From Deltaproteobacteria bacterium (lineage in GTDB: Bacteria > Myxococcota > JACRCW01), in the NCBI GenBank assembly GCA_016218805.1, contig JACRCW010000058.1, positions 1 to 38,110 on the forward strand: a stretch of 38,110 nucleotides of DNA. Direction: 5' to 3'. Each line of letters opens with the position of its first letter. Position 1 is the stretch's first letter. The position numbers and the translations under genes were made by a program. The notes beneath the pieces were generated by a model. It did not search any database. It was not told the origin of the DNA and saw nothing but the letters and a program-made list of their open reading frames with translations. Of the stretch, positions 2,018 to 38,074 are shown one piece after another.

Positions 2018-2082
2018 GGTGAGGTACCCCGGCCCGCGCGGTGGCTGCACCGCGGAGGGGCCGGAGAACCTCTAACCCGCAC

Positions 2083-5657: not shown

Positions 5658-5706
5658 CGTGCTTTGCGCTTGCCGCATTCCGCCGTTTGTGGAACACGGA
5701 CCCATC

Positions 5707-6465: not shown

Positions 6466-6466
6466 G

Positions 6467-7801
6467 GTGGCGCGCACGCTGCTCCACTTTGACCCCGCCG
6501 CCGGCGCATCCGGGGACATGGTGCTGGGCGCACTGCTGGACGTGGGCGTGCCCGCAGAGGTGGTGGACACCGCGGTGCGTGCGGTGGGCGTGATGGCCCG
6601 CCTGGAAGTGAACCCGGAGCTGCGGCACGGCATCCGCGGCCTGAAGGTCCGGTTCCTGGCGCCGTCCGGCGCTGCGGTGGACCCGCTGGATTCAGACCAC
6701 CCGCCGGAACTCATCCCGCCCCTCATGGTGGACCGCCGCGCCGGGACGGCGGGCCCGCTGTGGCGCCACGTGGAGCAGAAGACCGCGCACACCCACGCGC
6801 ACCACCCGTGGCGTGAGGTGGCCAAACGCATCTCCGCGGCGCCCCTGGCCACGGACGTGCGGGACCTGGCGCTGCGCTTCCTGGGACGGCTGGCCGCGGC
6901 GGAGGCGCAGGTGCACGGCATCCCGCTGGATGACGTGGCCCTCCATGAAGTGGCCGCCGATGACAGCGTGGCCGACCTGGTGGGCGCGGCGGCGGCGTTG
7001 TGCCACCTGGCGCCGGACCGGGTGACCTGTGACGCGTTTGGCGTGTGCAGCGGTTTCATCCGGATGGAACACGGCAACATCCCCGGCCCGGGGCCGGCCA
7101 CCGCGCAGTTGCTCATGGGCGCGCCCGTGGTGGGCCTGGCCGGACGCATGGAGACCGTCACGCCCACGGGCGCCGCCATCCTGACCACGGTGGCCCACTC
7201 CTTTGGCCCGCCGCCGGCCATGGTGCTTGTGGCGCAGGGGTTTGGCGCCGGCCGCAAAGACCCGCCTGAACGCGCCAACCTGTTGCGCGCCTGGCTGGGC
7301 GAGGAGGGCCGCGCGGCGCACCGCGTGCCGCCGGGAGACGCCGTCCTGCTGGAGACCAACGTGGATGACATGACGCCGCAGGACCTGGCCGTGACGGCGG
7401 AGCGGCTGCTGGCGGCGGGGGCGCTGGATGCGTGGGTCACGCCGGTGGTGATGAAGAAGGGCCGGGCCGCCTGGACGCTGCACGCGCTGGTGGAGCCCTC
7501 GCGCCAGGCCGCCGTGGTGCGGCGCCTGTTCCAGGACACCACCACGCTGGGCGTGCGGATCCAGCCCGCCACGCGCATGGTGGCCGAGCGCGTGCACGAG
7601 CGCGTCCGGACCCCCTGGGGTGACGTGCGCGTCAAGGTGGCCCGCGTGGACGGCGTGGAGACCGCGGCCGTGCCGGAGTTTGATGACTGCGCGCGCCTGG
7701 CTGCGCGCGCGGGTGTCGCCGTGGGCCAGGTGCGCAACGCGGCGCTCACGGCGCGCGCACCCGCGGCGCGCCGGCGTGCGCCGCGGAGGAGCCGGCGATG
7801 A
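6467..7801 (+). CDS. larC: Nickel insertion protein LarC (fused LarC1-LarC2)
   Basis: Motifs GASGDMVLGAL, His patch HTHAHH, AEAQVHG...HEV, TPTGAAIL, ETNVDDMTP, MKKGR, TTTLGVR, PEFDDC. GTG 1 nt after the larB stop. Confidence 0.92.
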   Translation: MARTLLHFDPAAGASGDMVLGALLDVGVPAEVVDTAVRAVGVMARLEVNPELRHGIRGLKVRFLAPSGAAVDPLDSDHPPELIPPLMVDRRAGTAGPLWRHVEQKTAHTHAHHPWREVAKRISAAPLATDVRDLALRFLGRLAAAEAQVHGIPLDDVALHEVAADDSVADLVGAAAALCHLAPDRVTCDAFGVCSGFIRMEHGNIPGPGPATAQLLMGAPVVGLAGRMETVTPTGAAILTTVAHSFGPPPAMVLVAQGFGAGRKDPPERANLLRAWLGEEGRAAHRVPPGDAVLLETNVDDMTPQDLAVTAERLLAAGALDAWVTPVVMKKGRAAWTLHALVEPSRQAAVVRRLFQDTTTLGVRIQPATRMVAERVHERVRTPWGDVRVKVARVDGVETAAVPEFDDCARLAARAGVAVGQVRNAALTARAPAARRRAPRRSRR

Positions 7802-11997: not shown

Positions 11998-13659
11998 TCA
12001 CCGCCCCGGCCAGGCCGAACTCCCGCCGGTGCGCGTGAGCACCACGCGGTCCTTGGCCGCATCCACGTGCAGCCCGGCCTGGCGCCCCAGCACACTGACC
12101 AGCTCCGCCTCCGCCTTGCCAAACTCCGCGCCCAGCGCGCGCGCCAGCGGCGCCCACGGGGCCACGCGTGCCTCGCCCTCCGCCGCGCCGTGGAACGCCA
12201 GGTGCTCCAGCGCGCGCGCCATCATCCGCGCGTCCTCCGCGGTGGTGCGCAGCCCCGTGGCGTGCGCGTCCAGCTCGCGGAAGCGCGCGGCCAGCGCTTT
12301 GACAAACGTACCCATCCAGTGCCGCTCCACCAGCTGCTGCTCCAGCGCCTCGCGCGTGACCACCATGACGGTCAGCTCCGTCACCGCGCGCACGCTGGCG
12401 GTGCGCGGCTTGGACGTGAAGATCGCCGTCTCACCAAACACGTCCCCCGGTCCCATGGTGCGCAGCGGCGTCTTGCGGCCGTGCTCCATGTGGAACACCT
12501 CGCAGGACCCTTCCGTGATGATGTACGCCGCGTCCGCTTCGTCCCCCTCCTTCACCACCACCGTGCCGGGCGCAAAGGTCTCCGTCGGGAACCAGTAGCC
12601 GCCGCGGAAACGCTCCAACTCGCGCCGGAAGTCCTCAATGGTCTGGTAGCGGTCCTCCGGCGGGCGCCGCATGGCGCGCATGGCCACCTGGCACAGCGCG
12701 GGCGGCAGCGGGCGGTCCGCCACTTCACCGGGCAGCGGGATGCGGCCCTTCTGCGCCGCCATCACCTTCTCCAGCGGTGTGGCGCCGCCGTACGGCGGCC
12801 GGCCGGTGAGCACCTGGTAGAGCAGCGCGCCCATCGCAAACACGTCGGTGCGCTCGTCAATGTGGTCGTTCTCGCCCAGCGCCTGCTCCGGTGCCATGTA
12901 CGCAAACGTGCCCACCACCGTGCCGCGCGCGTCCGCGTTGCCCGCCTTGCGCGCAATGACCACGGGGTCCTCCACCTCGCCGCCGCTGCGCGCGCCCGCC
13001 ACCAGCATGGCAATGCCCCAATCCATCACGTAGACCTGCCCAAAGGCGCCCACCATGATGTTGTCCGGCTTCAGATCGCGGTGGACCACGCCGCGGCTGT
13101 GCGCAAAGGACAGCGCGTCGCACACGCGCACCAGGATCTCCAGAATCTCGTCCAGCCCTTCGCCCGTGGAAGCGGCGTCCGGGTGCTTCTTGAGGATCTG
13201 CGTGAGCGTCTCGCCGCGCACCAGCTTCATGGTGAAGAAGTGGCGGCCCTCGCCGTCAAGACCCAGCTCGTGCACCGGGACAATGTTGGGGTGGTCCAGC
13301 TGCCCGGTGATCTGCGCCTCCTCCACAAAGCGCAGCCGTGCCTTGGGCGCGCCTGCGCGTTCGGGGTCCAGCGTCTTCATGGCCACCATGCGCTTGAGGT
13401 CGTGGTCGTACGCGCGGTGGATGGAACCAAACCCGCCCCGCGCAATCACCCCGCGGTCCTCCACGCGGTGCCGCGCCGCGGGCCCCGGCGCCGGCAGCTC
13501 GTCTGAGGCGGAGGAACCGGCGGGGGCGTCCGGATGGAAGGTCGCCGTCGCTGCGCTGGGCGGCGTGGGGTGCGCCTTCAGCCACTCAGGCAGCGCCACC
13601 TGCACGCTGTCATCCAGCGTCTTGCGCGGCGGCTTCTTCTTTCCGGGCTCCTGGGTCAT
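11998..13659 (-). CDS. Ser/Thr protein kinase with C-terminal cyclic-nucleotide-binding domain
   Basis: Kinase motifs GGFG, VAMK, HRDLKPDN, DWG, GTFAYMAPEQ, TDVFAMG. cNMP domain motifs FAPGTVVVKEGDEAD...GDVFGE...PRTASVRA. Confidence 0.93.
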   Translation of the reverse strand: MTQEPGKKKPPRKTLDDSVQVALPEWLKAHPTPPSAATATFHPDAPAGSSASDELPAPGPAARHRVEDRGVIARGGFGSIHRAYDHDLKRMVAMKTLDPERAGAPKARLRFVEEAQITGQLDHPNIVPVHELGLDGEGRHFFTMKLVRGETLTQILKKHPDAASTGEGLDEILEILVRVCDALSFAHSRGVVHRDLKPDNIMVGAFGQVYVMDWGIAMLVAGARSGGEVEDPVVIARKAGNADARGTVVGTFAYMAPEQALGENDHIDERTDVFAMGALLYQVLTGRPPYGGATPLEKVMAAQKGRIPLPGEVADRPLPPALCQVAMRAMRRPPEDRYQTIEDFRRELERFRGGYWFPTETFAPGTVVVKEGDEADAAYIITEGSCEVFHMEHGRKTPLRTMGPGDVFGETAIFTSKPRTASVRAVTELTVMVVTREALEQQLVERHWMGTFVKALAARFRELDAHATGLRTTAEDARMMARALEHLAFHGAAEGEARVAPWAPLARALGAEFGKAEAELVSVLGRQAGLHVDAAKDRVVLTRTGGSSAWPGR

Positions 13660-13749
13660 GGGCTGGTCTCCGGGCGGGCGGCGCATTGTGGCCTGAATGC
13701 CCGCGCCAGGTCGAACGCCGCGCGGAACGCGGTCGCGCTCCGCGCAGGG

Positions 13750-23629: not shown

Positions 23630-25630
23630 ATGGGATTCAACATCATTGGCCAGGACGTGGTGGATGCCCCACCTCCGCCCACCCCCACGGGTGACCGGCG
23701 GCTGGTGGCGCCCTTCCTGCCCGCCAGCCCGGAGGAAACGCGCGCCCGCGGGTGGGACGCGGTTGACGTGGTGTTCGTCACCGGCGACGCCTACGTGGAC
23801 CATCCCAGCTTTGCCATGGCCGTGCTGGGGCGCGTGCTGGAGGCCCGCGGCTACCGCGTGGGCATCCTGGCGCAGCCGGACTGGCGCGCGCCGGACGCGT
23901 TCCGCGCGTTTGGGAAGCCGCGGCTGGCCTTCTGCGTCTCAGCGGGGAACCTGGATTCCATGCTGAACCACTACACGGCGCACAAGCGGCCGCGCCGTGA
24001 TGACGCGTATTCGCCCGGAGCGCGCGCGGGGCTGCGCCCGGACAAACCCACGCTGCAGTACACGCAGCGCTGCCGGCAGGCGTGGCCGGAGGTTCCCGTC
24101 ATCGTGGGCGGCATGGAAGCCTCCATGCGGCGCCTGGCCCACTATGACTACTGGTCGGACACGGTGAAGCGGTCCATCCAACTGGACGCCAAGGCGGACC
24201 TGCTGGTGTACGGCGCCGGGGAACGCCCGCTGCTGGAGATTCTCGCCCGCCTGCGTGCGGGTGAGGACGTGCGGTCCATCCGTGACGTGCGCGGCACGGT
24301 GTACGCGCTGGGCGCGTCTGAGGCGGCGGAGCTGTTGGGCGCGCGCGAATCCGCACCGTCCGGTGTACGGGAGTTGGCCGCGCCGCTGCACGGCTTTGCC
24401 GCGCTGGAGTTGGCTCCGTTTGACCTCATCCGCGCGGACAAGCCCGCGTTTGCGCGCGTGCAGCACGCGTTCCACCGCGAACAGAACCCGCACAACGCGC
24501 GTGCCCTGGTGCAGCGCCACGGCGACCAGGCGGTGGTGCAGAACCCGCCGCAGCCGGCGCTGACGACGACGGAGATGGACTGGCTCCACGGGCTTCCCTA
24601 CAACAAGCTCCCGCATCCCTGCTACGGCCAGCAGCGCATCCCCGCCTACGAGATGGTGCGCTTTTCCATCCAGGTCATGCGCGGGTGCTTTGGCGGTTGC
24701 ACGTTCTGCGCAATCACTGAACACCAGGGCAAGACCATTCAATCCCGCTCTGAGGCGTCCATCCTGCGCGAGGTGGAGGACCTGCAGCGCGTACCCGGCT
24801 ACACCGGCGTGGTCAGCGACCTGGGCGGCCCCACCGCCAACATGTTCCGCCTGCAGTGCGGCGCCCCGGAGACGGAGAAGGTGTGCCGCCGCCACAGCTG
24901 CGTGCACCCGACCATCTGCACCAAGCTGGTGGTGGACCAGGGGCCGGTGACGGACCTGATGCGCCGCGCGCGCCACGCGCCGGGCGTGAAGAAGGTGCTC
25001 ATCGGGTCAGGGGTGCGGATGGACCTGGCTGACGACGCGTATATCCGCGAACTGGCCGCGCACCACGTGGGCGGGCACCTCAAGGTGGCGCCGGAGCACG
25101 TGGACGAGGAGACGCTGGCGCGCATGAAGAAGCCCGGCGTGGACGTGTTTGTGCAGTTCAAGCAGAAGTTTGACGCGGCCAGCCGCGCGGCGGGCAAGGA
25201 GCAGTACCTGGTGCCCTACTTCGTCTCGTCACATCCCGGGTGTGACATGGACGGCGCCATTGCCCTGGCCAACTTCCTCAAGGAGGGCAACTTCCGCCCT
25301 GAGCAGGTGCAGGACTTCATCCCCACGCCCATGACGCCGGCCACCTGCATGTGGTTCACCGGCATTGACCCGCTGACGCTTCGCGCGGTGTACGTGGAGC
25401 GTGACGGGCAGAAGAAGAAGCAGCAGAAGGCGCTGATGCAGTACTGGCGCCCGGAGAACCACGGCCTGGTGAAGGACGCGCTGCGCGGCGCGGGCCGCGC
25501 TGACCTGCTGGGCACGCACCGCACCGCGCTGGTGGAGGAATACCAGCGCATGGGCTGGCAGCCGCCGCGTGACAAGGGGAAGTTCCATGGCCGCCCCAAG
25601 CGGAAGACCCACCCGGGCGCGCGGGGCTGA
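23630..25630 (+). CDS. ygiQ: YgiQ-family radical SAM protein
   Basis: Motifs VTGDAYVDHPSF, GNLDSMLNHYT, EASMRRLAHYDYWSD, RGCFGGCTFC (CxxxCxxC), DLGGPTANM, LKVAPEH, QVQDFIPTPMT. ATG at 23630. Confidence 0.95.
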   Translation: MGFNIIGQDVVDAPPPPTPTGDRRLVAPFLPASPEETRARGWDAVDVVFVTGDAYVDHPSFAMAVLGRVLEARGYRVGILAQPDWRAPDAFRAFGKPRLAFCVSAGNLDSMLNHYTAHKRPRRDDAYSPGARAGLRPDKPTLQYTQRCRQAWPEVPVIVGGMEASMRRLAHYDYWSDTVKRSIQLDAKADLLVYGAGERPLLEILARLRAGEDVRSIRDVRGTVYALGASEAAELLGARESAPSGVRELAAPLHGFAALELAPFDLIRADKPAFARVQHAFHREQNPHNARALVQRHGDQAVVQNPPQPALTTTEMDWLHGLPYNKLPHPCYGQQRIPAYEMVRFSIQVMRGCFGGCTFCAITEHQGKTIQSRSEASILREVEDLQRVPGYTGVVSDLGGPTANMFRLQCGAPETEKVCRRHSCVHPTICTKLVVDQGPVTDLMRRARHAPGVKKVLIGSGVRMDLADDAYIRELAAHHVGGHLKVAPEHVDEETLARMKKPGVDVFVQFKQKFDAASRAAGKEQYLVPYFVSSHPGCDMDGAIALANFLKEGNFRPEQVQDFIPTPMTPATCMWFTGIDPLTLRAVYVERDGQKKKQQKALMQYWRPENHGLVKDALRGAGRADLLGTHRTALVEEYQRMGWQPPRDKGKFHGRPKRKTHPGARG

Positions 25631-25730
25631 CGCTCCCACCGCCACGCGCGGACGTCGTCGTGCGCGCGCGGTTGCGCAGGCGCCCGCTACCCACTGAGGA
25701 TGGCCGCCCATGTCCGCCTCCCCGTCGACG

Positions 25731-26135
25731 ATGATCCTCCTCGCGGCCGGCCTGCTGGTTGCGTCCGCGTGCCGCCCCGCGGCCGAGCCGCCGGGTCCCA
25801 CCCCCGCACCTGCCACGCCGCCCCGCCTGGACGGGGTCCAGCGCCCGCCCACTGAGGGCGACGGGCGACCGCCGGCGGTCGTGGCGTTGGTCGCCCTGGA
25901 GAGCGTGGACGTGGGAGACCAGACGTTCTTCAGGTTTGACCAGCGCGGACGCGCCGGCTGGGCCGCCGTCGCCCGGCGCTCCATGCCGCCCGGCACGCCG
26001 GTTCGCTTGCGGGTCACCGGCGCCGAGCGCAACCACGCCGTCACTTTCATGAAGGAACCGCTTCCCGTCGTGCTGTTTGGCGTGGTGCTGGACAGCCCTG
26101 CGGGAGCGGCCGCCGCCCCCATCCACAATCCATGA
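25731..26135 (+). CDS. Small lipoprotein, possible NrfJ-like OB-fold domain
   Basis: Lipobox VASAC and Pro-rich linker. LESVDVGDQTFFRF...WAAV resembles the LETMDxGGYTYxR...WAA family (from memory). Alternative start at 25710. Confidence 0.55.
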   Translation: MILLAAGLLVASACRPAAEPPGPTPAPATPPRLDGVQRPPTEGDGRPPAVVALVALESVDVGDQTFFRFDQRGRAGWAAVARRSMPPGTPVRLRVTGAERNHAVTFMKEPLPVVLFGVVLDSPAGAAAAPIHNP

Positions 26136-26183
26136 ATTGAAGCAGGTCCCAGGCAGGGGCGGGCCCAAGACCCCGTATTCCTG

Positions 26184-26200
26184 CTGGCATGCACCCTGCT
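26184..26200 (+). promoter_or_regulatory. Putative sigma54 (-24/-12) promoter
   Basis: CTGGCATGCACCCTGCT has GG at 26186-26187 and GC at 26198-26199 (GG-N10-GC). It lies about 45 nt upstream of ATG 26246, in front of an operon encoding a sigma54 activator. Confidence 0.65.
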
Positions 26201-26245
26201 CTGCCCCCGTCCGCCGGCGTGGTGGGGCCGGGAGGACGGTGCACC

Positions 26246-26851
26246 ATGCTGGCGGCGCTGCTGATCACGGGGTGGCTGGGCGGGCAGGCGGGCGCGGCGG
26301 GGGATGCCCCGCGGGTGGTGGCGCCGGTGCTGGCGTATGGCGCGCCGGAGGGCGCGGCGCGGGTGGTGGCGTACTTCCCGTTCGGCGGGTCCAAGGAGCT
26401 GCAGCGGGACGAGCGCACCGGGATGTGGCGGGGGCGCGCGCTGTTGGGCGCGGCCGTGCCTGAGGGGAGCTACCCGGTGGCGCTGGTGGTGGAGGCGCAG
26501 GACGGCAGCCGGATGGTGCGGCACGAGCAGCTGCAGGTGCGCGCGGATGGGCAACCGTTCCAGGCGCGCGTGGCCGACGAGGCGGTGGCCCCCGGTGGCG
26601 TGGTGGAACTGGTGGTGGACGCCGTGGAGCCCGCGCTGGCGGTGACCGCGCGCGCCCCCACGCTGTGGACGGGTGCGCGGCCGCTGGGGCCGGCCACGTG
26701 GGGATCACGCACGGACTGGGGGGCGCTGTGGGTGGTGCCCGCCGACGCCGCGGCGGGCGACCACACGGTGGAGGTGAGCGTGACCGACCGCGCCGGCCGC
26801 ACGTTCAGCCGGGGCCTGGTGCTGCGGGTGGTGCGCGCCGAGGCGCGCTGA
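26246..26851 (+). CDS. Secreted protein with two beta-sandwich-like domains
   Basis: Signal peptide. Two similar modules end in VPEGSYPVALVVEAQDG and VPADAAAGDHTVEVSVTDRAG. Confidence 0.75.
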   Translation: MLAALLITGWLGGQAGAAGDAPRVVAPVLAYGAPEGAARVVAYFPFGGSKELQRDERTGMWRGRALLGAAVPEGSYPVALVVEAQDGSRMVRHEQLQVRADGQPFQARVADEAVAPGGVVELVVDAVEPALAVTARAPTLWTGARPLGPATWGSRTDWGALWVVPADAAAGDHTVEVSVTDRAGRTFSRGLVLRVVRAEAR

Positions 26852-26862
26852 AGGAGGATGCC

Positions 26863-27288
26863 ATGAACGAGGAGCTGCTCACGATGAACCCGCCTCACCC
26901 GTCCTCCGCGCCGCCCGACCCGCGGGAGCTGCTGGCGGACCTGGCACATGACCTGGGCAAGTACCTGCGGATGCCGGTGGCCTTCCTGCCCGCCGCCGCG
27001 TCCGACGACGAGGTCCGTGACGCCGCACGCCGCGCGCTGCTGGAGACGCGCGTGACACCGACGGGTACGCGCGGTGCACGGGCGCTGTGGGAGGCGTTCC
27101 TGGCCGAGGGCGGGGACGCGCTGCGGGGCCGGGAGGGGTTTGACGAACTTGAGCGCGCGGTGGCCCGGGCCCTGGCCTGGGAAACCCGCGTGCGGGACGG
27201 AGGGAGCGCACTGGAACGGCCCGCCCTGGTGGCGGACTTCTCCGCGGTCTCCGCCGCCATCCGCGCGCTCAGCCAACGGTTGGACTGA
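26863..27288 (+). CDS. Small helical protein with His-box-like motif (LAHDLGKY)
   Basis: RBS AAGGAGG and ATG at 26863. DLAHDLGKYLRMP resembles a HisKA H-box; the rest is helical. Confidence 0.75.
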   Translation: MNEELLTMNPPHPSSAPPDPRELLADLAHDLGKYLRMPVAFLPAAASDDEVRDAARRALLETRVTPTGTRGARALWEAFLAEGGDALRGREGFDELERAVARALAWETRVRDGGSALERPALVADFSAVSAAIRALSQRLD

Positions 27289-27392
27289 CGGGACGCTCCA
27301 TCGCGCCCCGGGAAAAGGAACGCGCTATGGTTTCCATGCACGCCCCCATGACGGGGGCGGTGGCTGAGCTGCCGCCTCTGCAGGTTCCCCGG

Positions 27393-29105
27393 ATGAGCAA
27401 GCGCAAGCCCAACATCCTCGTCGTTGACGACGGGCTGACCTACGCGCGGGTGGTGGCGGACCATCTGCCGGAGCTGCGGCTGGTGACCCCGGACGGGCAG
27501 CCCTGCCTGCGGGATGGTCCCTCCGCGCTGGCGTGGCTGGACCGCCACGTGGATGAAGTGGACCTGGTGCTGCTGGACATGCACTTTGACGTGCCCGACG
27601 AGAAGCTGCTGCCGCTGCCCAATGAGCCCAGCCTGCGGCGCCAGAAGCGCTTCCAGGGCGTGGCCATTCTCCGGGAAATCCGGCACCGCCACCCCGCGCT
27701 GCCCGTGGTGCTGCTGACGGCGGAGCAGGACCTGTCCCTGGTGGACGTGGACGGCCAGCTGGCTGCGCAGTCCATGACCTACGTGCTGGACGGCGAAGAC
27801 CTGGACACCCTGCGCATCCGCATCAACGCGGCGCTGCAGGAGGCGTCCCAGGGCCTGGAGGAGGATGACCTGCTGTGGGGCGGGCACCGCGCCATGGCGG
27901 CCATCCGGCGCCGGCTGGAGGTGCTGTCCCGCGGGAGCATGCCCGTCATCATTGAGGGCGAAACCGGTACCGGGAAGAGTTTCCTGGCCGAGCGCTACCT
28001 GCACCGCAAGAGCGGGCGGAAGGGCGCGTTCGTGACGCTGGACCTGTCCGCGGTGCCCACTGAGCTTGTCGCCAGCCACCTGTTCGGCGCGCTGCGCGGG
28101 TCGTTCACCGGCGCGGTGGCGGACCGCAAGGGCGTGTTTGAGCTGGCCCACCACGGCACGCTGTTCATTGACGAGATCCAGAACGTCCCCATTGAGGTGC
28201 AGAAGCAGCTGCTGGTGGTGCTACAGGAACGCAAGGTGCGCCCCATCGGCGCGGCGCGCGAGATCGACGTTGACGTGAAGGTGGTGGCCGCGTCCAACCA
28301 GCCGCTGGCGCTGGCCGTGGCGGAAGGCCGCTTCCGGCAGGACCTGTACATGCGGCTGGGGCCGGCCACGCGCGTGGTCATCCCGCCGCTGCGGGAGCGG
28401 CTGGGGGACTTGCCGTTCTTTGCGCGGCGCATTGTGACGCGGGCGGCGGAGGACCCGGAGAACGCGCCGCTCAAGGCGGAAGTGGCCCGCGCCGCGGGGC
28501 TCACCAGTGAGGCGCCCATGCACGTGCTGCTGGGCCGGTCCGACACGCCGCCCCCGTCCCACGCGCTGGCGCTGGTCCTGCCGGAGCCCGCCTGGAAGGT
28601 GCTGTCCGCGCACCGCTGGCCCGGCAACATGCGCGAGCTGCACTCGGTGATGCACCACCTGGTGGCGTTCACGCTGGTGGCCGCCGCGGACGCGCTGCGC
28701 AGCGGGATGCCGCTGAAGAACCCGCGCCTGCAGGTGGACGTCGGGCTGGTGGGTGAGCTGCTGTCCGCCTCCCAGGCGCTCAACGCGCCCCGCGCCGCGG
28801 CGCCAGCTTCCCCGGCGGCCCCCGCCCCCGCGCCGGTGCACTCGCAGGTGCGCGGGGTGACGCCGCTGCCCGCGGTGGACACGGACGCGCGCGACACCTT
28901 CCTGGTCAAGGTGCGCCCGCTGGGCAGCCTCAACGCCGTCGCCGTGGACGTGGAGCGGCAATACTTCTTTGCGTTGTACAAGCGGTTTGGCGGCGACTTT
29001 GCCCGGATGGCGGAGGTGCTGCTGGGTGACCCGGCCAAGGAGCGCGCCATCCGGCTGCGGTTCAACCAGATGGGCCTGAAGGTGCGGGAACTGCGGGGAC
29101 GATGA
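27393..29105 (+). CDS. Sigma54-dependent response regulator (receiver + AAA+ + atypical HTH)
   Basis: Receiver motifs ILVVDD and LVLLDM. Walker A GETGTGKS, GSFTGA loop, Walker B FIDEI, RFRQDLYMRL, WPGNMREL. Alternative starts at 27327-27348. Confidence 0.92.
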   Translation: MSKRKPNILVVDDGLTYARVVADHLPELRLVTPDGQPCLRDGPSALAWLDRHVDEVDLVLLDMHFDVPDEKLLPLPNEPSLRRQKRFQGVAILREIRHRHPALPVVLLTAEQDLSLVDVDGQLAAQSMTYVLDGEDLDTLRIRINAALQEASQGLEEDDLLWGGHRAMAAIRRRLEVLSRGSMPVIIEGETGTGKSFLAERYLHRKSGRKGAFVTLDLSAVPTELVASHLFGALRGSFTGAVADRKGVFELAHHGTLFIDEIQNVPIEVQKQLLVVLQERKVRPIGAAREIDVDVKVVAASNQPLALAVAEGRFRQDLYMRLGPATRVVIPPLRERLGDLPFFARRIVTRAAEDPENAPLKAEVARAAGLTSEAPMHVLLGRSDTPPPSHALALVLPEPAWKVLSAHRWPGNMRELHSVMHHLVAFTLVAAADALRSGMPLKNPRLQVDVGLVGELLSASQALNAPRAAAPASPAAPAPAPVHSQVRGVTPLPAVDTDARDTFLVKVRPLGSLNAVAVDVERQYFFALYKRFGGDFARMAEVLLGDPAKERAIRLRFNQMGLKVRELRGR

Positions 29106-31918
29106 ACGCGTGCCTGCTCGCCCTCAGTGCCTGGCTGGCCGGCCAGTCCCCACCTGCCGACGCGGGCGCGGCCGACGGCGCCGTCCCCGCCGGTGAGATG
29201 GCGGCGCTGCTGCAGCAGACGCTGCAGAAGCTGGCGCAGAAGAACACGGAGGACGGGCTGGCCAACTTCCGCGCGGGCAACCTTCCCGCCGCGCTGGAGC
29301 AGCTGCGGCAGGCGCGCGAACTGGACCCCGAGTCTCCGGACGTGCTGCTGCACCTGGGAAACGTGCACCAGGCGCTGGGCAACACCGACGCGGCGGAACA
29401 GTCCTGGCGTGCTGCGCTGGTGCTGGCCCCCGATCACCAGGCCGCGCGCCTGGCCCTGGCGGACCTGCTGGCGGCGCGGCATGACCCGCGGGGTTTTGCG
29501 GAGGCGCAGGCGCTGCTGCAGCGCGTGCGTGAACTGCGCGGCAATGACCCGGACGTGGTCCTGCGGCAGGCACGCGTGGCCGCCCGCGCCGGGCGCGTGG
29601 ATGACGCGGAGCGTTTCTATGACGACGTCATTCGCCTGGGCCGCACCCCACCGGAGACGCGCATGGAGGTCGCTGACTTCCTGCAGGGCATGGGGCGCGA
29701 CCGCGACGCGCGCGCGCTCTACGAGCAGCTGCGCAACGAATCCGCATGGAGCCGCCGCGCCGCCGAGCGGCTGCGCCAGGTGGCGGTGGAGGAACAGGCG
29801 CGCCGCCTTGGGTGGTCGCGCCCGTCGGGCGAAGTGCCCGCCCCGGCTCAGGCGCTGCTGGCGCGTGCGCGCTCCGCGGCGGCGCAGCAACGGCGCGCGG
29901 AGGCGGAGGAGGCGCTGCGCGAGTGCCTGCGCATGGCGCCGCAGTTCACCGACGCGCGCCTGGATCTGGCGGGGCTGCACCAGGCGGCTGGCCGCATGGG
30001 GGATGCGGAGCTGGAGCTGTTGCGCGCGCTCGCATTTGACCAGCGCAACGCGGAGGTGCACGCGCGCCTGGGGCTGATGCTGCTGGACGCGGAGTCCCCG
30101 CGCGCACCGGAGGCCGCGCTGTACCTGTCCCGCGCGCTGCTGCTGCGCCCTGAGCGCAGCGAGTGGAACCTGGCGCTGGCGCGCGCCCTGCGCCTGGGCG
30201 GGGACTTCCGTGGTGCGCTGGCGCGCGTGGACGCGTTCCTCCAGGGCGACGGGACCGAGGAGGCCCGGCGCGAAGCGCTGTCCCTCAAGCTGGCCCTGCA
30301 GCGCCTGCTCCCCACGGACAGCCCGGACCCCACTGACGTGCCGCGGGCCACCGGGACCGACACGGCACTGGTGGACCGCCTGGGCCGCGCGCGCGCCTAC
30401 CTGTCGCGCGGGGAGACGGACGCGGCGCTGGCGGAACTGCGCGAGGTGGGCGGTACCGACCGCGACGCCGAGGTGCGCGGCCTGGAGGGGCGGATCCTGA
30501 TGGCCGCCGGCCGGCAGAGCGAGGCCGCCGCGGCGTTCCGCGCGTCACTGGCGGTGCACGCCGCGCAGCCGGACATCCATGAGCAGCTGGGGCTGGTCCT
30601 CTCCCGCCTGGGCGAGGAGGCCGCGGCACGCGCCGAACTGGAGCGCGCGGAAGCCACCGGCGCACCGGAGGCGACCTATCACCTGGCCCGCTTGGCCCTG
30701 GAGCGCGCCCAGCGCAAGCCGCTGGCGTGGACGGTGCGCCTGCACGCCGCCTGGCGCGCGCGCGCAAGGCTGGATCACTTCCTCACCGCGGCGCCCCCGG
30801 GCGCCCTGCGCAGCGACGCCTGGGCCATGCGCGACTCTGTCGACCGGCTCCTCGCCACGCTGCTGCTGCCGGGCGCCGCGGCGCTGGCCCTGCTGCTGGC
30901 CCTGCTGGCGGTGGCGATGGAACGGCGGTTTGGCGGCACGGATCTGCGCGGCCTGCTCACGCGCCATCCCGAGGTGGGGCCGGCGGTGCAGCGCATCCTG
31001 GCTGCCATCCGCCACGAGGTGCTCAAGCACAACACGCTGGTGCTGTCCGGCGTGGTGGACGCGCTGGAGCGCGGGGATGACGTGTCCGCCCACGCCGCGC
31101 ATCTGCGCTCCACGCTGCTGGAGGGCGGCAGCGGTCCCGCCGTGCTGGACCGCCTGCACGGCTACGAGCTGGAGCTGGCCTCCCTGGGCCGCGCCCACGG
31201 CGTGCGCCTCAACCTGCACCACCGGGACCGCGCGCTGTCCGCGCTGCACCGCGGCTTCACGCTGCTGCGCCGGGTGGAAGCGCGCCTGTCCCGCGCCGCG
31301 TCGCTGGGACGCCTGCGCCGCCGCCTGCTGCTGGGGGACGTGCGCCGTGCCACCGCCCTGCTCAACGCGGACGCGTACGAGGCCGTCCGCGCGCTGCTGG
31401 ACGAGCTGCGGGTGCTGCGGGTGGACGAGGCCTTCCTCCGCTCGGTGTACGCCCGCGTGTCCCGCGAGCCGGCGTTCCGCCCGGCGCAGCTGCGGCCGCT
31501 GGCGCTGGACGCGCGCGTGCCGCTGCCGGTTGGCGTGGGCATCCCCCGCGCGGCGCTGGAGGACGCGCTGTTCAACCTGCTGCGCAATGCCCTGCAGGCC
31601 TCCCTGCGCGAGGGCCTCTCACCCGTGGAGGTGGGCCTGGGCGTGGACCTGCAGGTGGACGCGGTCACCGGCCTGGAGCGCGTGGTGTTCAGCGTGCGTG
31701 ACCGCGCACGCGCGCGGCTGGACCCTGACACGCTGGCGCGGCAGCGCATCACCGGCGGGCTGGGCCTGGTGCGGGACGTGGCCGGCCGCTACGAGGGCTC
31801 CGTGGACGTGACCGGACCGCACGACGGGTGGCAGAAAGCGGTGGTGCTCAAGCTGCCGCGCGAAGAGTTGCCCGGCGCCGCCCCGGCGCACGGCCCACCG
31901 CTGCTGGAGGCCGGTTGA
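29102..31918 (+). CDS. TPR-repeat membrane sensor with divergent histidine kinase core
   Basis: Signal peptide, many TPRs and a TM helix (LLLPGAAALALLLALLAVAM). H-box-like IRHEVLKHN, N-box LFNLLRNALQA, VRD and GGLGL. ATGA overlap with the upstream gene. Confidence 0.85.
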   Translation: MNACLLALSAWLAGQSPPADAGAADGAVPAGEMAALLQQTLQKLAQKNTEDGLANFRAGNLPAALEQLRQARELDPESPDVLLHLGNVHQALGNTDAAEQSWRAALVLAPDHQAARLALADLLAARHDPRGFAEAQALLQRVRELRGNDPDVVLRQARVAARAGRVDDAERFYDDVIRLGRTPPETRMEVADFLQGMGRDRDARALYEQLRNESAWSRRAAERLRQVAVEEQARRLGWSRPSGEVPAPAQALLARARSAAAQQRRAEAEEALRECLRMAPQFTDARLDLAGLHQAAGRMGDAELELLRALAFDQRNAEVHARLGLMLLDAESPRAPEAALYLSRALLLRPERSEWNLALARALRLGGDFRGALARVDAFLQGDGTEEARREALSLKLALQRLLPTDSPDPTDVPRATGTDTALVDRLGRARAYLSRGETDAALAELREVGGTDRDAEVRGLEGRILMAAGRQSEAAAAFRASLAVHAAQPDIHEQLGLVLSRLGEEAAARAELERAEATGAPEATYHLARLALERAQRKPLAWTVRLHAAWRARARLDHFLTAAPPGALRSDAWAMRDSVDRLLATLLLPGAAALALLLALLAVAMERRFGGTDLRGLLTRHPEVGPAVQRILAAIRHEVLKHNTLVLSGVVDALERGDDVSAHAAHLRSTLLEGGSGPAVLDRLHGYELELASLGRAHGVRLNLHHRDRALSALHRGFTLLRRVEARLSRAASLGRLRRRLLLGDVRRATALLNADAYEAVRALLDELRVLRVDEAFLRSVYARVSREPAFRPAQLRPLALDARVPLPVGVGIPRAALEDALFNLLRNALQASLREGLSPVEVGLGVDLQVDAVTGLERVVFSVRDRARARLDPDTLARQRITGGLGLVRDVAGRYEGSVDVTGPHDGWQKAVVLKLPREELPGAAPAHGPPLLEAG

Positions 31919-32382
31919 CCACGCTGCACGGCCGCACGGTGCTCATCGTCGAAGACGGTGACGAGTACCTGCACAACCTGGCGCGGTTTGTCCCCGGGCC
32001 GCGCTACCTGCAGGCCCATGACGGCCGCGAGGCCTGCGCGTTGCTGGCCCGCGAGCCCGTGGCGCTGGTGTACCTGGACATGCGCTTTGACCGCGTGCCG
32101 CTGGAGAGCCTGCTGGGGGACCACGCCGCCGCCACCCGCGAGCAGAACGGGGACCCGGCGCGCGGCTGGAAGTACCTGCAGAACAACCAGGGCCTGTTTG
32201 TGCTGGACGCCATCCGGCGCGCGGGCTTTGCCCAGGTGCCGGTCATCCTGGCGTATGACTTCTCACGCGAAGAGAAACGCCTCGCGCACCTGCGGCGGGC
32301 GAACCCGCGGCTCAACTGGGTCCCTGACGCGGTCACACCCGCGGAGATCACCGCGCTGATGGAGAAGGTGCTGGCGGCGTGA
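31915..32382 (+). CDS. Single-domain atypical response regulator
   Basis: TTG start overlapping the upstream TGA. Motifs VLIVEDGD, LVYLDMRFD, QGLFVLDAIR, VPVIL. Confidence 0.82.
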   Translation: MTTLHGRTVLIVEDGDEYLHNLARFVPGPRYLQAHDGREACALLAREPVALVYLDMRFDRVPLESLLGDHAAATREQNGDPARGWKYLQNNQGLFVLDAIRRAGFAQVPVILAYDFSREEKRLAHLRRANPRLNWVPDAVTPAEITALMEKVLAA

Positions 32383-32388
32383 ATCCGG

Positions 32389-33246
32389 TCACGCCTTGGC
32401 CGCGCGCTCCGCCGCCTTGGCCCGGTCCCACAGCGCGTTGAGTTCGTCCATGGTGCACTGCTCCGGCGTGCGCCCCTGCGAGCGCAGCGCATCCTCCATG
32501 AACATGAACCGCCGTGTGAACCGCTCAATGGTGAGGCGCAGCGCGTCCTCGGCGGACTGCTGCAGCAGCCGCGCCAGCTGCACCGTGGCGAACAACAGGT
32601 CCCCCAGCTCGTGGCGCACCTCGTCGGCCACGCCCGCCGCCATGGCCTGCTCCAGCTCGGCCAGCTCTTCGCGCACCTTGGCAATCACCTGGTGCGCGTC
32701 TTTCCAGTCAAACCCCACGCGCGCGGCCTTCTCCCCCACGCGCTGGGCGCGCAGCAGCGCGGGCAGCGCGGGCGGCACGCCGGACAGGATGCTGGCCCCG
32801 CCCCGCTCCGCGCGCTTGAGCTGCTCCCACTTGTTGAGCACGCCCGCCGCCGTGGTGGGGTGCATGCCCTCACGCGCCGCGTCCGCGCCAAACACGTGCG
32901 GATGGCGCCGCACCAGCTTGTCCCGGATGCCGCGGCACACCTCCGCCGCGTTGAACCCATCCTCCTGCTCGCTGGCCACGCGCGCGTGGAACACCACCTG
33001 GAACAACAGGTCCCCCAGCTCTTCGCGGTGCGCCGCCACGTCACCTGCGTCCATGGCGTGGAGCACCTCATAGGTCTCCTCCAGCAGGTACGGCTTGAGC
33101 GTCTCATGCGTCTGCACCCGGTCCCACGGGCAGCCCGTACGCAGGCGGTCCATCACCCGGCACAGTTCCTCAAACGCCTCCCCCGCCTCGCCCGGCGCGG
33201 CCGCGCCCGGTGCGGGTTGACTGGCCACGGACGTCATGGGGCTCAC
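32389..33246 (-). CDS. mazG: Nucleoside triphosphate pyrophosphohydrolase MazG
   Basis: Motifs GCPWDRVQTHETLKPYLLEETYE, EELGDLLFQVVFH, KLVRRHPHVF, GFDW, ELGDLLF, RFTRRF. Start at 33246 (GTGA overlap) or 33237. Confidence 0.95.
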   Translation of the reverse strand: MSPMTSVASQPAPGAAAPGEAGEAFEELCRVMDRLRTGCPWDRVQTHETLKPYLLEETYEVLHAMDAGDVAAHREELGDLLFQVVFHARVASEQEDGFNAAEVCRGIRDKLVRRHPHVFGADAAREGMHPTTAAGVLNKWEQLKRAERGGASILSGVPPALPALLRAQRVGEKAARVGFDWKDAHQVIAKVREELAELEQAMAAGVADEVRHELGDLLFATVQLARLLQQSAEDALRLTIERFTRRFMFMEDALRSQGRTPEQCTMDELNALWDRAKAAERAAKA

Positions 33247-34721
33247 AACTCCTCGGCAATGATCCGCGCCACCACCTGCTCCACCTTCTCGCGGTGGTCC
33301 GCATCATCAAACAGGAACTGCAGGCCAAAGCCCGCCTCCGGCCCGTCACGGTGCCAGGTCACGCGCCCGCGCACGTCCACACCGCTGCGCATCCCGCTGT
33401 GCGGCTTGAGGGAGACGTTCACCTCGTCACCCACGGGGATGAGCTCGTGGGAGAGAATGAACAGGCCGCCTTCACTGATGTCATCCACGTGGTCCTTGCG
33501 GGACTTCTGCTGGTGCTGGACCTTCACGGTCAGCCCGGCACGCACGCGGCTGTGCACGCGGTCCTGCGCGGAGCGCTCCCGGCCGTGGGCCTGCGCCAGC
33601 AGCCGTTCCACGGCAGGCTTCTCCGCCGCCAGGAACTCCACGCCGGTGCCGGCCTTGAGCTGACCCGCCCCGCGCCGGCGCTTCCACGCCACCTTGCCCT
33701 TGATCTCCACGGTCCGAGGGGTGCCGCCGCCGCCGTCCTCAAACCGCAGCACCAGCGTCACGGGCTGGCCCAGGTCCGCCTCCAGCTGGCTGGACACCAG
33801 GTAGCCACCGGCGTCGCCGTGGGGGAAGTACCCGGTCAGGAAGGACGCGGCCTTGGCCAGCGGCACCTCGGTGCGCGGCGGGCCGCCGGTGGGCGGGACG
33901 GACGCGCGGGTCTCCATCCCGGTGGAGCTTTGCCGGCGCGGCGGCGGCTCCGAGGCCGGGCGCTTGGAGTCGTAAACCCGCTCGGAGACCTTCTGCGTGG
34001 TGAAGTAGGTGGACCCGCCGGCGGGCGCGCTGGGCTGGAAGGGCAGCGGCGTGCGCTCCTCCTTGAAGGACTTGCCAGCCCAACCGGCAGGCGGGCCGGA
34101 CGGCGTGGCGGTGCTGGGTGCGCCCGCCGCGGGAAACGGTGGAACGGTGGGCGTGCGCGCGGGCGGCGGCGGCACCGGCGGCAGCGACGGGGACGACCCG
34201 GTGGGCGCACTCACCGCCGGTGGGGGCCGAGGCTCCGCCCGCGCGGCCAGCGGCGGGTCGGAGGTGGGAATCAGGTCCGCCCACTCCAGGCCGCCGCCGC
34301 CACTGCGCGCCGCCACCACCGGCGGCGGGGGCGCAGGCGCGTCCGGCGTGGGCAGCGGCGTGGCGGCGGCAAACGCCGTCGCCGCCGTCGCCGCGGGGGT
34401 CTCCACGTGATCCGTGGTGGGCGCCTCCTTGGGCGTGTTGCCCAGCAGCGTGCGGATCTTGTCGTCGTGCGCACCCGCTTTCAGCTCGCGCAGCACCGCC
34501 TTGTGCTGCGCCTGCATGAGGTCCTTGATGAACTCCGGGCCGGAGGTTGGGTCGTAGTTGAGCTTCTTGGTGGCGAGGATGGTGCCCGCGTGGAACAGGT
34601 GCGTGATGAGGTGCGCCTTGTCCACGCCGGAATCCTCCGTCTGGAGGTGGAACTCCCACCCCAGATGCAGGATGTTGTGGTTGTAGCCAACCACGGGCGA
34701 ACGGCGCTGCTCGGTCACCAC
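33243..34721 (-). CDS. Tandem PilZ-domain (TIGR02266-like) protein with conserved N-terminal domain and Pro-rich linker
   Basis: N-terminal GYNHN...HLQTEDSG...ITHLF..GTILA.KK..Y...LMQAQHK. First PilZ is degenerate (GKVAW...GVEF); second has RVHSR and DISEGG. Start inferred at GTG 34721 or 34718. Confidence 0.85.
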   Translation of the reverse strand: MVTEQRRSPVVGYNHNILHLGWEFHLQTEDSGVDKAHLITHLFHAGTILATKKLNYDPTSGPEFIKDLMQAQHKAVLRELKAGAHDDKIRTLLGNTPKEAPTTDHVETPAATAATAFAAATPLPTPDAPAPPPPVVAARSGGGGLEWADLIPTSDPPLAARAEPRPPPAVSAPTGSSPSLPPVPPPPARTPTVPPFPAAGAPSTATPSGPPAGWAGKSFKEERTPLPFQPSAPAGGSTYFTTQKVSERVYDSKRPASEPPPRRQSSTGMETRASVPPTGGPPRTEVPLAKAASFLTGYFPHGDAGGYLVSSQLEADLGQPVTLVLRFEDGGGGTPRTVEIKGKVAWKRRRGAGQLKAGTGVEFLAAEKPAVERLLAQAHGRERSAQDRVHSRVRAGLTVKVQHQQKSRKDHVDDISEGGLFILSHELIPVGDEVNVSLKPHSGMRSGVDVRGRVTWHRDGPEAGFGLQFLFDDADHREKVEQVVARIIAEEL

Positions 34722-34814
34722 GATGGCTTTGTCCCCGGAGGGGTTTCTCCCCGTGAAATCCGAGTCAAAGCCCGGCGCGCGGCCGGTTGTCAAACCCCGG
34801 GTCTACCGGGCGCG

Positions 34815-35432: not shown

Positions 35433-37472
35433 TCAGGACTGCGCGCGCGCCCCAGCTTCCGGCACCGGCTTCGCGGCGTGGGCGCTGACCGGCTGCACCT
35501 CCAGCGGCACGCGCATCAGGAAGGTGGTGCCGCGGCCGGGCTCGCTGTCCACGGTGATGTCTCCGCCCATCAGCCGTGCGAACTTGCGGCTCAGGGCCAA
35601 CCCCAATCCCGTCCCGCCGTAGCGGCGCGTGGTGGACGCCTCCGCCTGGCTGAACGCCTGGAACAGGCGCCCCACCTGGTCCGGCGTCATGCCAATGCCC
35701 GTGTCCTGCACCCAGAACGCCATGCCCGGCACACCGTCGTCGGTGATGGGCTGCATGCGCAGCGTGATGGTGCCCTGCTGCGTGAACTTGCACGCGTTGC
35801 TCAGCAGGTTGAACAGCGCCTGCCGCGTCTTGGTGAGGTCCGCCTTCATGGTCACCGGCTCGGGGGGCAGCTGCGTGACCAGCGTGTTGCCGTTCTTGTC
35901 CACCAGCGGGCGGATGATGTCCACGATTTCGTCCGCCATCTTGTTGACGCTGAACGCCTCCACGTAGACGTCCATCTTTCCCGCCTCCACCTTGGAGAGG
36001 TCCAGGATGCCGTTGATGAGCTCCAGCAGGTGCTTGCCCGCGGTGCGGATGCGGCCCAGGTCCTTGAGCATCTGGTCCTCGCCCATGTCCTCGGCTTCCT
36101 CCATCAGCGTCTCGCTGTAACCCAGGATGGCGTTCATGGGCGTGCGCAGCTCATGGCTCATGTTGGCCAGGAACATGCTCTTGGCCTGGTTGGCCTGCTC
36201 GGCCGCCTCGCGCGCGCGCAGCGCGTCCTCGGTGGCGCGCGCCAGCTGGCCGGTGCGCTTCTCCACCTCATCCTCCAGGTTGCGGTTGACCTCCCCCAAC
36301 TTCTGGTTGGACAGCGTCAACTCCCGGCTGGCCGCCGTGAGGCTGGCGGTCATCTCCAAGTTGCTGAGCACCAGCGCGCTCTGGTTGGCCATCAGCGTCA
36401 GCAACTCCAGGTCCCGCCGGCGGAACCGCCCCTGCAGCCGCCGGCTCTCCACCTGCACCAGCCCGCGAATCTCCTTGTGGTCCCACAGCGGTGCCACCAG
36501 TCCGCTCTTGAGTTGCGCGGCCAGCATGCTGTCGGAGTTGCGCAGCGCCTGGTCGGCGTCGGTGAAGATGATGGACTCGCGGCGTTCCGTGACGTGGTGG
36601 ATGAGTGTCTTGCTCACGGACACGCTCTGCGCCCAGGGGTCATCCGGGTCACGCGCGCGGTGGTGTGCGGGAACAAAGCTGCCGTCAGGTTTCCGCACAA
36701 AGATGGACACGTGCGTGGCCTGCGGGAAGGTCACCAGCGTCCACTGTGACAGCGCCTGGAACAGTGCGTCCTTGTCCGCCAGGCGGTTGAGCTGCTTGAG
36801 GAGCCGGTAGAGGCAGCGCATGCCCTCCACGTCGTCCTCCACGCGGACGAACAGATCGTCCACGTCCTCCACGCGGCTGGTTTCGTTGATGAGCTCGCCG
36901 CTTTCAGCGGGGCCCGGGTCCGCCTCCAGCATGCTCTCCACCGCCATGCTGCGGAACGGCCGCCCTCCCGCCGTCATGGGCTTGCCAAACGCGGCCGGCG
37001 GCAGCGGCGGCGTGCCCGCGGGGATGGGGATGACCGCGCGCTGCCGCGTCAACGTGGTGTGCCCCGGCGCGCGTGCGCTCACCACACCCTGCTGCACCAC
37101 CGCTCCGCCCCCGGCGGCCGGGGACACCCACTGTGCCGGCGGCGCCGCCTTGGGCGTCTCTCTCGCGCCCACCCATTCCGTCGTCAGTGTCCAGGCGCCC
37201 AGCTGGATGTGTTCGCCGCCGGCCAGGTAGGTTTCCTTCACGCGCTGGTTGTTCACCAGCGTCCCCAGGAGCGTCCCGTAGTCCTGCAGGTGCACTCGCC
37301 CATCCGGCTTGTGGCTCAGGCGCAGGTGCATGCTGCTGATGGCCGGGTCATCAAGGAGCAGGTCGCAGTCCATGCTGCGGCCCACAATCATCGCCTGCCC
37401 GCGTCGCAGATCCACGACGCGGGACTCGGCGTTCTGCCGGACCAGGCGGAGTCGGAAAGTTCGGTCGTCCAC
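35433..37472 (-). CDS. Cytoplasmic sensor histidine kinase: FHA + GAF + HisKA + HATPase
   Basis: FHA motifs VGRS.DCD...ISSMH. H-box [15 protein letters not shown]-box [11 protein letters not shown]1 DTGIG, G2 GGTGLGL. GTG start at 37472 is inferred. Confidence 0.92.
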
Positions 37473-37561
37473 GCGTGTCCCCGAGGTGCGCCACGCTCCC
37501 ATGCCGGGGATGGCCACGCAATGGAAACTCGCCCGGGGCTGTGCCGGCACGCCCCAGGCGG

Positions 37562-38074
37562 TCAGTAGCGATCGACCCCGTGGCGCGGGTTCGTTTCCCA
37601 CTCCCCGGCCTTGTGAAGGTGAAAGATCGCCCAGGCGGTGAAGGGTGCGTCCAGCAGGACCGCCGGATCCTTGCGCAAGGCGCCGGCCAGGGGCTGCTCC
37701 TGCACGTCCTTGTCGAGGTAACGCTGCAACTTCTCAATCGGGGCGCCGTTCTGGTCTTCTGTCCGTGCCATCGCAGGGTGAAAACACGCATTCCTCAGCA
37801 GCAACAGCGGCTCATGAAGGGCGTCCCGCGGCTTGTCGCCGTGCATGCCATAGGTATCACCGGTGGTGGATTCATGGATAAGTTCAGCGAGCAACGCGCA
37901 GTGAGACGTCGCCACAAACCAGCGTTTCCACCGGACCGCACGTGCCAGCTGGTCCACCAGGCGCTCCACGGTGGGTGTGATCGCCCATGGTTGTGGTCCC
38001 TGCCGGTGGGGCAGCCACAGGATCCCAAAGTGCCGTTGTGGTGTGGCACAGCCGCCCCGGCTGTGCCGGTGCAT
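37562..38074 (-). CDS. Hypothetical protein with Rx4H (HEPN-like) motif; start uncertain, frame open to window edge
   Basis: Lower-GC helical ORF containing LRNACFHP (37778-37795). No in-frame stop up to 38110. Possible alternative GTG start at 37969. Confidence 0.45.

Follow-up and report, generated by a model that had tools for sequence, protein, structure and literature searches.

Four-step His-Asp-His-Asp phosphorelays are known from Bacillus (KinA-Spo0F-Spo0B-Spo0A) and from Caulobacter (CckA-ChpT-CtrA). A locus with comparable parts, namely a kinase, a single-domain receiver, a stand-alone His protein apparently akin to the His domain of the kinase and a terminal transcription factor, lies in contig JACRCW010000058.1 of the Deltaproteobacteria bacterium assembly GCA_016218805.1, of which we analysed positions 1 to 38,110 of the forward strand (38,110 nt in all; hereafter the window). 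A first-pass annotation, made from the letters of the window alone, had proposed here an undescribed sigma-54 signalling operon of five atypical genes. The conserved unit consists of four of these, genes 2 to 5, which encode a His mini-protein, a receiver-bearing bacterial enhancer-binding protein (bEBP; the activator), a membrane kinase with tetratricopeptide repeats (TPR) and a lone receiver. We give a probability of about 0.55 to the reading that genes 2 to 5 form a self-contained His-Asp relay controlling a small sigma-54 regulon of secreted and envelope proteins. The computational evidence consists of the conservation of the genes, a pattern of residues, the folds, and the association of an operator with promoters.

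Conservation and composition of the cassette

When species genomes were scanned with the activator, 11 loci were recovered. All eight full-length relatives among them (54-60% identity; seven labelled Myxococcota) carry genes 2 to 5 in order, without gene 1. The same four genes are all present in order in 52 of the 54 loci long enough to judge, which were drawn from a set that includes 80 metagenome loci (the best 80 of 162). In locus L069 genes 2 and 3 are missing directly upstream of the kinase and the lone receiver, which an acyl-CoA dehydrogenase-like gene precedes; gene 2 is displaced in L123; and L068, too short to be counted among the 54, has the kinase and the lone receiver without genes 2 and 3 directly upstream. 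The proposed five-gene unit does not survive this comparison. Genes 2 to 5 do occur together in other genomes, but gene 1 as a rule does not accompany them: of 106 loci, many of them short, 8 have its domain next to the cassette, and all five genes were seen in this order again only in L056, the closest relative of the window in a quick tree that resolves three clades. Conservation of all five genes was accordingly rejected, gene 1 being absent beside most cassettes.

The protein families of the cassette average only 28-48% identity. Pairwise identities of the cassette proteins correlate over the 54 loci (Spearman 0.78-0.91, values that relatedness alone inflates), most strongly for the kinase and the lone receiver (0.91, against 0.78-0.84 for the other pairs). 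Together with the co-occurrence of the genes and the reciprocal change of residues described below, this agrees with the earlier suggestion of a co-evolved, insulated sigma-54 system. Among 401 genomes of the window's phylum, 18 gave a match to the lone receiver, one of them the window's own; among 401 genomes of the phylum to which one Myxococcota hit belongs, 86 did (E<=3e-26, a count that leaves out 11 weaker matches). The distribution is patchy, since the only other genome of the window's family, 96% complete, gave no lone-receiver match. The cassette is real and is widespread in mostly uncultured myxobacteria-like bacteria.

In the window, the five open reading frames (ORFs) are co-oriented, and they, the ATGA overlap of genes 3 and 4 (29102-29105), the TTGA overlap of genes 4 and 5 (31915-31918) and the sigma-54 box are all present where they were first placed (Table 1). 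The alternative start of gene 3 is the one at whose equivalent the majority of homologues begin. Earlier domain calls hold as well: Sigma54_activat (E 3e-52) and TPR families are matched, HATPase_c and Response_reg only below cut-off. None of the cassette proteins reaches an NCBIfam equivalog cut-off (ntrC, 212 bits vs a cut-off of 559).

Table 1. Features of the operon and its upstream region in the window
Feature	Position	Strand	Description
Predicted operator (upstream activating sequence, UAS) TCCATGAATTGAAGC	26129..26143	.	Family consensus KCTRY-N5-RTAGM; overlaps the stop codon of the upstream ORF
Sigma-54 -24/-12 promoter element TGGCATGCACCCTGCT	26185..26200	+	Motif match; rpoN found in the genome
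Gene 1	26246..26851	+	201 aa, two Ig-like domains, probably secreted; detached C-terminal region of VIT-vWA proteins
Gene 2	26863..27288	+	141-aa His protein, H29-D-L-G-K33; predicted monomeric four-helix bundle; candidate phosphotransferase or phosphatase
Gene 3	27327..29105 (start may be 27393)	+	Sigma-54 activator (bEBP): receiver, AAA+, divergent Fis-like C-terminal domain
Gene 4	29102..31918	+	Exported TPR array, one transmembrane helix, His domain (H638-E-V-L-K642), GHKL ATP-binding domain with short lid
Gene 5	31915..32382	+	Stand-alone receiver; long beta3-alpha3 insertion

The Walker A/B, arginine-finger and sensor II motifs of the activator's AAA+ domain (G-TGK-S, DE, D-L-x-M-R and GN-RE) are invariant or nearly so in 62 sequences. 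The window's protein has a GSFTGA loop and a lid insertion of ~45 aa, and the family mostly reads G[AS]YTG[AS] at the loop. GSFTGA and GAYTGA are described as functional variants of GAFTGA (PMC6615313); the loop ends in -TGS in 24 of the 62 sequences, a form outside the variants named in the passage cited. The C-terminal domain has no HTH_8 match and carries a conserved C-terminal motif.

The acidic pair and the phospho-accepting Asp are kept in all 59 complete activator receivers (D34 D35 and D84 in the window) and in all 98 lone receivers (E13 D14 and D55). The activator receiver also keeps T131, Thr being present in 61/61 members with sequence at this column; the corresponding column of the lone receiver holds Tyr, Ala or His, Thr occurring in a single one of 98 sequences, and 44 of the 98 have Ser one column earlier. 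R60 and D115 of the lone receiver are invariant. The two receivers are paralogues (hhalign 98.5%), and of the insertion they were said to have in common, the position is indeed the same, while length and sequence differ. Under the definition given in PMC12632262 both count as pseudo-receivers, failing its five-residue test; the same source adds that loss of one conserved residue need not abolish phosphorylation. Activator receivers of clade B (L018:936-1445; L037, L040-L046, L049) carry a cysteine-rich insertion, C-x5-PCQVC-x6-C-x3-C, absent from the window's protein and possibly a metal or redox site. Downstream of the clade B cassette in L049, six tandem paralogous small genes (120-174 aa) occupy 293-3069 on the + strand.

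Gene 4 encodes a protein with a single strong hydrophobic segment at residues ~580-610; its signal peptide, like that of gene 1, was judged by eye and from homologues. In the model of the cytoplasmic part (predicted local distance difference test, pLDDT, 94) the GHKL domain superimposes on kinase catalytic domains (Z 16.2, root-mean-square deviation (rmsd) 3.0, 140 residues aligned). Its catalytic boxes had been called degenerate, which is true of the G1 (DxGxG) glycines, the F box and part of the ATP lid, all lost, but not of the core of the ATP site. The kinase is therefore reduced rather than decayed: of 100 members, 99-100 retain the Asn of the N box, the Asp of G1 and the Gly of G2 (N829 in 100/100, D867 and G886 in 99/100 each; N825 falls within the same range). 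K912 (window ~31835), in a W-x-K motif of the last strand of the catalytic domain, is Lys in 99 of 100 kinases. The His domain has the motif H-[ED]-V-L-K-H instead of HE-x-x-T/N-P, and 25 members gave no HisKA match. It comprises ~150 residues forming five helices in the model and matches monomeric four-helix bundles at Z 12; from the model it is predicted to be a single-chain four-helix bundle, not a dimeric DHp hairpin. The cassette defines a kinase type that Pfam does not recognise.

Gene 2 belongs to an unannotated family of His proteins that the cassette defines (503 clusters at 50% identity; nearly all of 110-185 residues among the best 150). It has no Pfam match, and 55 family members gave no match to Hpt (PF01627) or HisKA. 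Its model is an up-down helical bundle (pLDDT 93) whose best structural match is a generic bundle (Z 9.5, rmsd 3.3, 115 aligned), CheA P1 standing at rank 49 (Z 7.6, rmsd 3.0, 103 aligned). Foldseek returned nothing at E<=0.001, with no DHp or Spo0B/ChpT structure among the matches listed, and Atlas searches gave no usable feature match. Profiles of gene 2 and of the kinase His domain align over 88 columns with a probability of 73% (P 3e-5, vs P>=0.2 for two control regions), helix by helix from a common H-[DE]-x-x-K motif; this likeness appears only with deeper alignments cut to the His domain, shallow profiles giving nothing or little. The two models also have the same five-helix order. Gene 2 is thus probably a free copy of the single-chain four-helix His domain of the kinase, the evidence of common origin being moderate.

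Lysine in the receivers and the His proteins

None of 61 activator receivers and none of 98 lone receivers has Lys at the end of beta5, in either possible register, whereas 121 of the 131 Asp-bearing receivers of the window's genome keep it. The change in the His proteins is reciprocal. The kinase has Lys four residues after the His (His+4) in all 25 loci found without the H-box pattern; the figure for the full set, 100 of 100, is partly circular because 80 loci were selected by motif. In the gene-2 family the His is invariant (151/151) and His+4 is Lys in 148 members and Arg in 3. None of the 67 ordinary HisKA domains of the window's genome has Lys at this position.

In yeast Ypd1, a side chain at His+4 takes the same space as K1195 of the receiver (PMC6341664). 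The residue pattern, read by analogy with this other fold family, suggests most simply that the Lys has switched sides, from the receivers to the His donors. That the His+4 Lys is supplied in trans for the catalytic Lys absent from the receivers is, in our estimate, a little short of an even chance. A wider claim, on which we are more reserved, is that the cassette may embody a natural orthogonal His-Asp chemistry, with the transition-state Lys moved from both receivers to His+4 of both single-chain-bundle donors of an undescribed family.

Operator, promoters and candidate targets

Sigma-54-like boxes number 22 in 130 kb of cassette flanks vs 4 in 238 kb of cassette coding DNA. Motif sampling was run on 19 promoters, comprising 16 of the 22 flank sites and 3 others (six flank sites were left out by eye, two as near-duplicates and four as poorly placed). 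It yielded a 15-bp palindrome, KCTRY-N5-RTAGM, of 12.8 bits, compared with a maximum of 8.55 in 25 locally shuffled sets. In leave-one-out scoring, 17 of the 19 training sites reach at least 8 bits vs none of the 34 other sigma-54-like sites of the window's genome. The operator of the window, itself left out of training, is the top position in 6.4 Mb (14.1 bits; the next scores 12.9). A sigma-54-like box preceded by a site scoring 11 bits or more is present in eleven held-out loci, some of which are closely related to training loci, and before gene 2 a site of at least 8 bits is found in 15 of 43 held-out loci vs 3 of 177 coding controls. Across the family the operator lies 43-146 nt before the -24 box, a shorter distance than the 100-250 bp reported for the UAS in Clostridiales (PMC6615313). 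The box itself was judged against the -24/-12 consensus as quoted in PMC6615313. A loose version of the motif, if taken alone, is at chance level in the window (2 found vs 3.55 expected); the strict version, TGGCAYG-N5-TGCW, has just 15 occurrences in the 6.4-Mb genome. Neither a sigma-70 promoter nor a terminator was found in 25500-32600.

Genes behind operator promoters encode LysM proteins (in three genomes), DUF2914, VIT-vWA and SPFH proteins, a beta-propeller, a protein with an extensin-like C-terminal domain and several unknown proteins with hydrophobic N-termini. The predicted targets are mostly secreted or envelope proteins, and we hold this regulon assignment to be very probable. Operator promoters also lead into the cassette itself in the window, L091, L113 and L152, and do so after one gene in L056, L099 and L118; positive feedback is therefore implied. 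The idea that the system feeds back on its own promoter, put forward in the first-pass annotation, gains support because the predicted operator of the window, 56 nt before the -24 box, precedes the promoter upstream of all five genes.

No sigma-54 promoter immediately ahead of gene 2 was found to be conserved through all loci. Nine of 10 clade B loci have a -10-like TAGAAT that lies 10-13 nt ahead of gene 2 and is overlapped by the operator, an arrangement that suggests self-repression. We dropped the view of the clade B motif TTCTATAGAA as a sigma-70 -10 box alone; both readings may hold, because the motif is also half of the operator.

Gene 1 shares 34% identity with the C-terminal two domains of VIT-vWA proteins of ~800 aa (L053, L054). 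It consists of this two-domain region only, the VIT and vWA domains themselves being absent. A first search found no longer forms, later genome searches did, and Atlas searches gave Ig-like leads only. The eight loci in which the region adjoins the cassette are the window, L056, L060, L075, L078 and L084, found by profile, and L062 and L018 (cut at contig ends), found by BLAST; L060 and L062 are near-identical over the stretches printed. The window genome's own VIT-vWA gene, on another contig, does not have the region. Genes with this domain stand beside cassettes more often than any other target family seen. Gene 1 behaves as a recurring target, because such genes recur beside cassettes yet the fixed five-gene layout is found only in the window and L056; it is most likely a member of the regulon outside the cassette core.

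In two genomes (L053:2922-7285 and L055:4634-8700), a beta-propeller (Reg_prop) gene comes after a VIT-vWA gene that has the gene-1 region at its end, and a related propeller gene at L005:5334-7037 has an operator and promoter of its own. Two further candidate targets lie in the window's genome: a MORN-repeat lipoprotein-like gene behind an operator of 12.7 bits and a sigma-54-like box (G000:C155:23208, L157), and a gene for a very large, secreted-looking beta-rich protein behind an operator of 10.2 bits and a sigma-54-like box (G000:C150:59753, L158). From L037:7257 onward on the + strand, an operator and a sigma-54 box point at no gene of at least 35 codons with coding bias, and this promoter possibly serves a small RNA or peptide. 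An unannotated, probably secreted family stands behind a promoter just downstream of the cassette at L002:8551-9135, at L006:15058-15555, in L086 from 3463 and at L001:5803-5922, the last copy ending after 40 codons.

Around the operon, a 141-aa lipoprotein-like ORF without Pfam match (25710-26135, +) has its stop codon inside the operator; it has no match beside other cassettes in the 11 loci tested. Convergent on the cassette are a proline-rich PilZ protein followed by MazG (33243-34793, -) and an FHA-GAF-HisKA kinase (35433-37601, -). Elsewhere the window holds a Ser/Thr kinase fused to a cNMP-binding domain (11998-13686, -) and an AIRC and Ni_insertion gene pair (5632-7801, +), which we take to be LarB-like and LarC-like.

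Proposed relay, rival wirings and known systems

In the relay that we propose, an outside signal, most likely a protein or an envelope state read by the TPR array, would set the activity of the membrane kinase; it is the targets alone that suggest an envelope or cell-wall cue. The kinase would autophosphorylate H638 on its single-chain four-helix bundle, and the phosphate would then move from H638 to D55 of the lone receiver, on to H29 of the mini-protein and finally to D84 of the activator receiver. At each His-to-Asp step the His+4 Lys of the His protein would stand in for the catalytic Lys that the receivers do not have; the same Lys should clash with ordinary receivers, which would insulate the pathway. 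The activator would bind the palindrome KCTRY-N5-RTAGM and open nearby sigma-54 promoters, and in the window's genome the promoter would drive gene 1 together with the cassette, as positive feedback. We consider phosphorylation of the cassette proteins likely. The order of transfer, which is drawn from gene pairing and co-variation, is the weakest step and is offered tentatively.

Several observations count against this relay or its regulon. Most cassettes are without an adjacent strict sigma-54 box, which was seen in 12 of 56 flanks upstream and 10 of 87 downstream. The motif nulls ignore the relatedness of the promoters. Among 80 further genomes, a fixed operator-plus-promoter pattern is found in 10 of 40 carriers vs 8 of 40 non-carriers; matrix scoring of the 80 finds 6 of 40 vs 0 of 40 at 14 bits, a cut-off chosen after the event. 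In L056, whose five-gene layout is that of the window, the operator is only weak (5.5 bits). On the side of the proteins, the fold of gene 2 is a generic bundle without a distinctive HPt or DHp match, the kinase has the losses in its ATP site listed above, and the lone receiver is without the Thr, with Asp at T+1. In Ypd1, transfer suffers when the residue at His+4 is large (PMC6341664). Each cassette receiver also has an invariant Arg, R108 in that of the activator and R60 in the lone one, which could take the place of the Lys in cis.

This last point leads to an alternative that we judge unlikely, in which a receiver Arg replaces the missing Lys in cis and the His+4 Lys is only a specificity or phosphatase residue; the two Arg are at different positions, while the His+4 Lys is common to both His proteins. 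A wiring with the same chemistry and outputs but another order, which fits as well though we hold it to be somewhat unlikely, is a branched one like that of RedCDEF, where the kinase would act on the activator directly, the lone receiver would be a competing sink or switch and the mini-protein would dephosphorylate the activator. RedE, a kinase-like His protein, does take phosphate from one receiver and dephosphorylate another (PMC2755868), the lone receiver is without the Thr needed for conformational output, and the single motif common to both His proteins means that both could dock on both receivers. The kinase and the lone receiver, however, co-vary most and persist as a pair without genes 2 and 3, as fits a primary pair.

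The failure of both receivers in the five-residue test and the reduced boxes of the kinase could also point to a partner switch that works without phosphate: the receivers would be true pseudo-receivers, the His+4 Lys would form salt bridges with their acidic pockets, and the mini-protein would bind, inhibit or release the activator. Some atypical regulators do keep the Asp for binding and not for phosphorylation (PMC12632262). We regard such a switch as improbable, given that the His, the Asp, the acidic pairs and the ATP-binding Asn, Asp and Gly are near-invariant at 28-48% mean identity, beyond the needs of binding. About equally improbable, it seems, is a loop of the kind suggested in the first-pass annotation, in which the secreted gene-1 protein, or its VIT-vWA relatives, would be the specific ligand of the TPR sensor. 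In favour of this loop, several branches have a gene with the gene-1 domain next to the cassette (the eight loci named above). Against it, 98 of 106 loci, many of them short, show no such domain in their flanks, gene 1 as query finds no match in two of five cassette genomes, and other clades drive LysM, DUF2914 or SPFH genes instead. Gene 1 is unlikely to be a universal ligand because its presence varies between loci.

How bacterial pseudo-receivers switch has been described as an open question (PMC12632262). If the relay with a Lys supplied in trans is correct, receivers would be catalytically complete only with the cognate partner bound, cross-talk would be blocked both ways, and one class of pseudo-receivers would be phosphorylated after all; the cassette offers a precise and cheap test of such completion of an active site in trans. 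The genomes concerned have about 140 receivers, among which the cassette would then stand as an insulated signalling module ready for use, and it would supply a design rule for orthogonal two-component systems. With the operator, the regulon can be traced in the genomes of uncultured bacteria, and several secreted families that are uncharacterised are linked to a single response.

The system is apparently undescribed, as first proposed: neither a description of the cassette nor a matching operon was found in the literature searched, a scope that takes in few subscription journals and no supplements. The operator palindrome, the kinship of gene 2 with the kinase His domain and the reciprocal Lys change are new. 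Unlike the four-step phosphorelays, the cassette has its four genes in one operon, a sigma-54 activator as output, predicted single-chain His bundles instead of dimeric hairpins, receivers without Lys and Lys at His+4. RedCDEF of Myxococcus xanthus likewise has four linked two-component proteins, one of them a single-domain receiver and another a His protein incapable of autophosphorylation; it is set apart by the kinase-like RedE with a degenerate ATP-binding part and by the dual receiver RedD, and its abstract names no DNA-binding output (PMC2755868). NmpRSTU, also of M. xanthus, resembles the cassette in its several components, its NtrC-like activator end, its defined operator and its sigma-54 regulon, but has two kinases and senses oxygen, and a mini His protein or an exported TPR sensor is not mentioned in the abstract (PMC11841059). 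With the NtrB-NtrC class the cassette has in common an activator of receiver, AAA+ and DNA-binding domains and a GHKL kinase domain; it differs in scoring below every equivalog cut-off, in its extra components and in the lack of a HisKA or HTH_8 match.

Gene 2 resembles HPt proteins (Ypd1, CheA P1) in its invariant His and perhaps in its predicted monomeric four-helix bundle, whose structural matches are generic; it differs in having the His on the first helix and Lys at His+4, where HPt proteins conserve Gly (PMC6341664). The kinase recalls the monomeric kinase EL346 (PMC10359499) and the BCK/PDK kinases, in which the helices before the GHKL domain can do without dimerisation; in EL346 a LOV domain lies over the His hairpin (PMC10359499), whereas the predicted bundle of the cassette kinase is completed by extra helices of its own chain. 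Most likely, then, the cassette works like a four-step phosphorelay that ends in an NtrC-class activator, with components that fall, by the tests applied, outside the HisKA, HPt and canonical receiver families.

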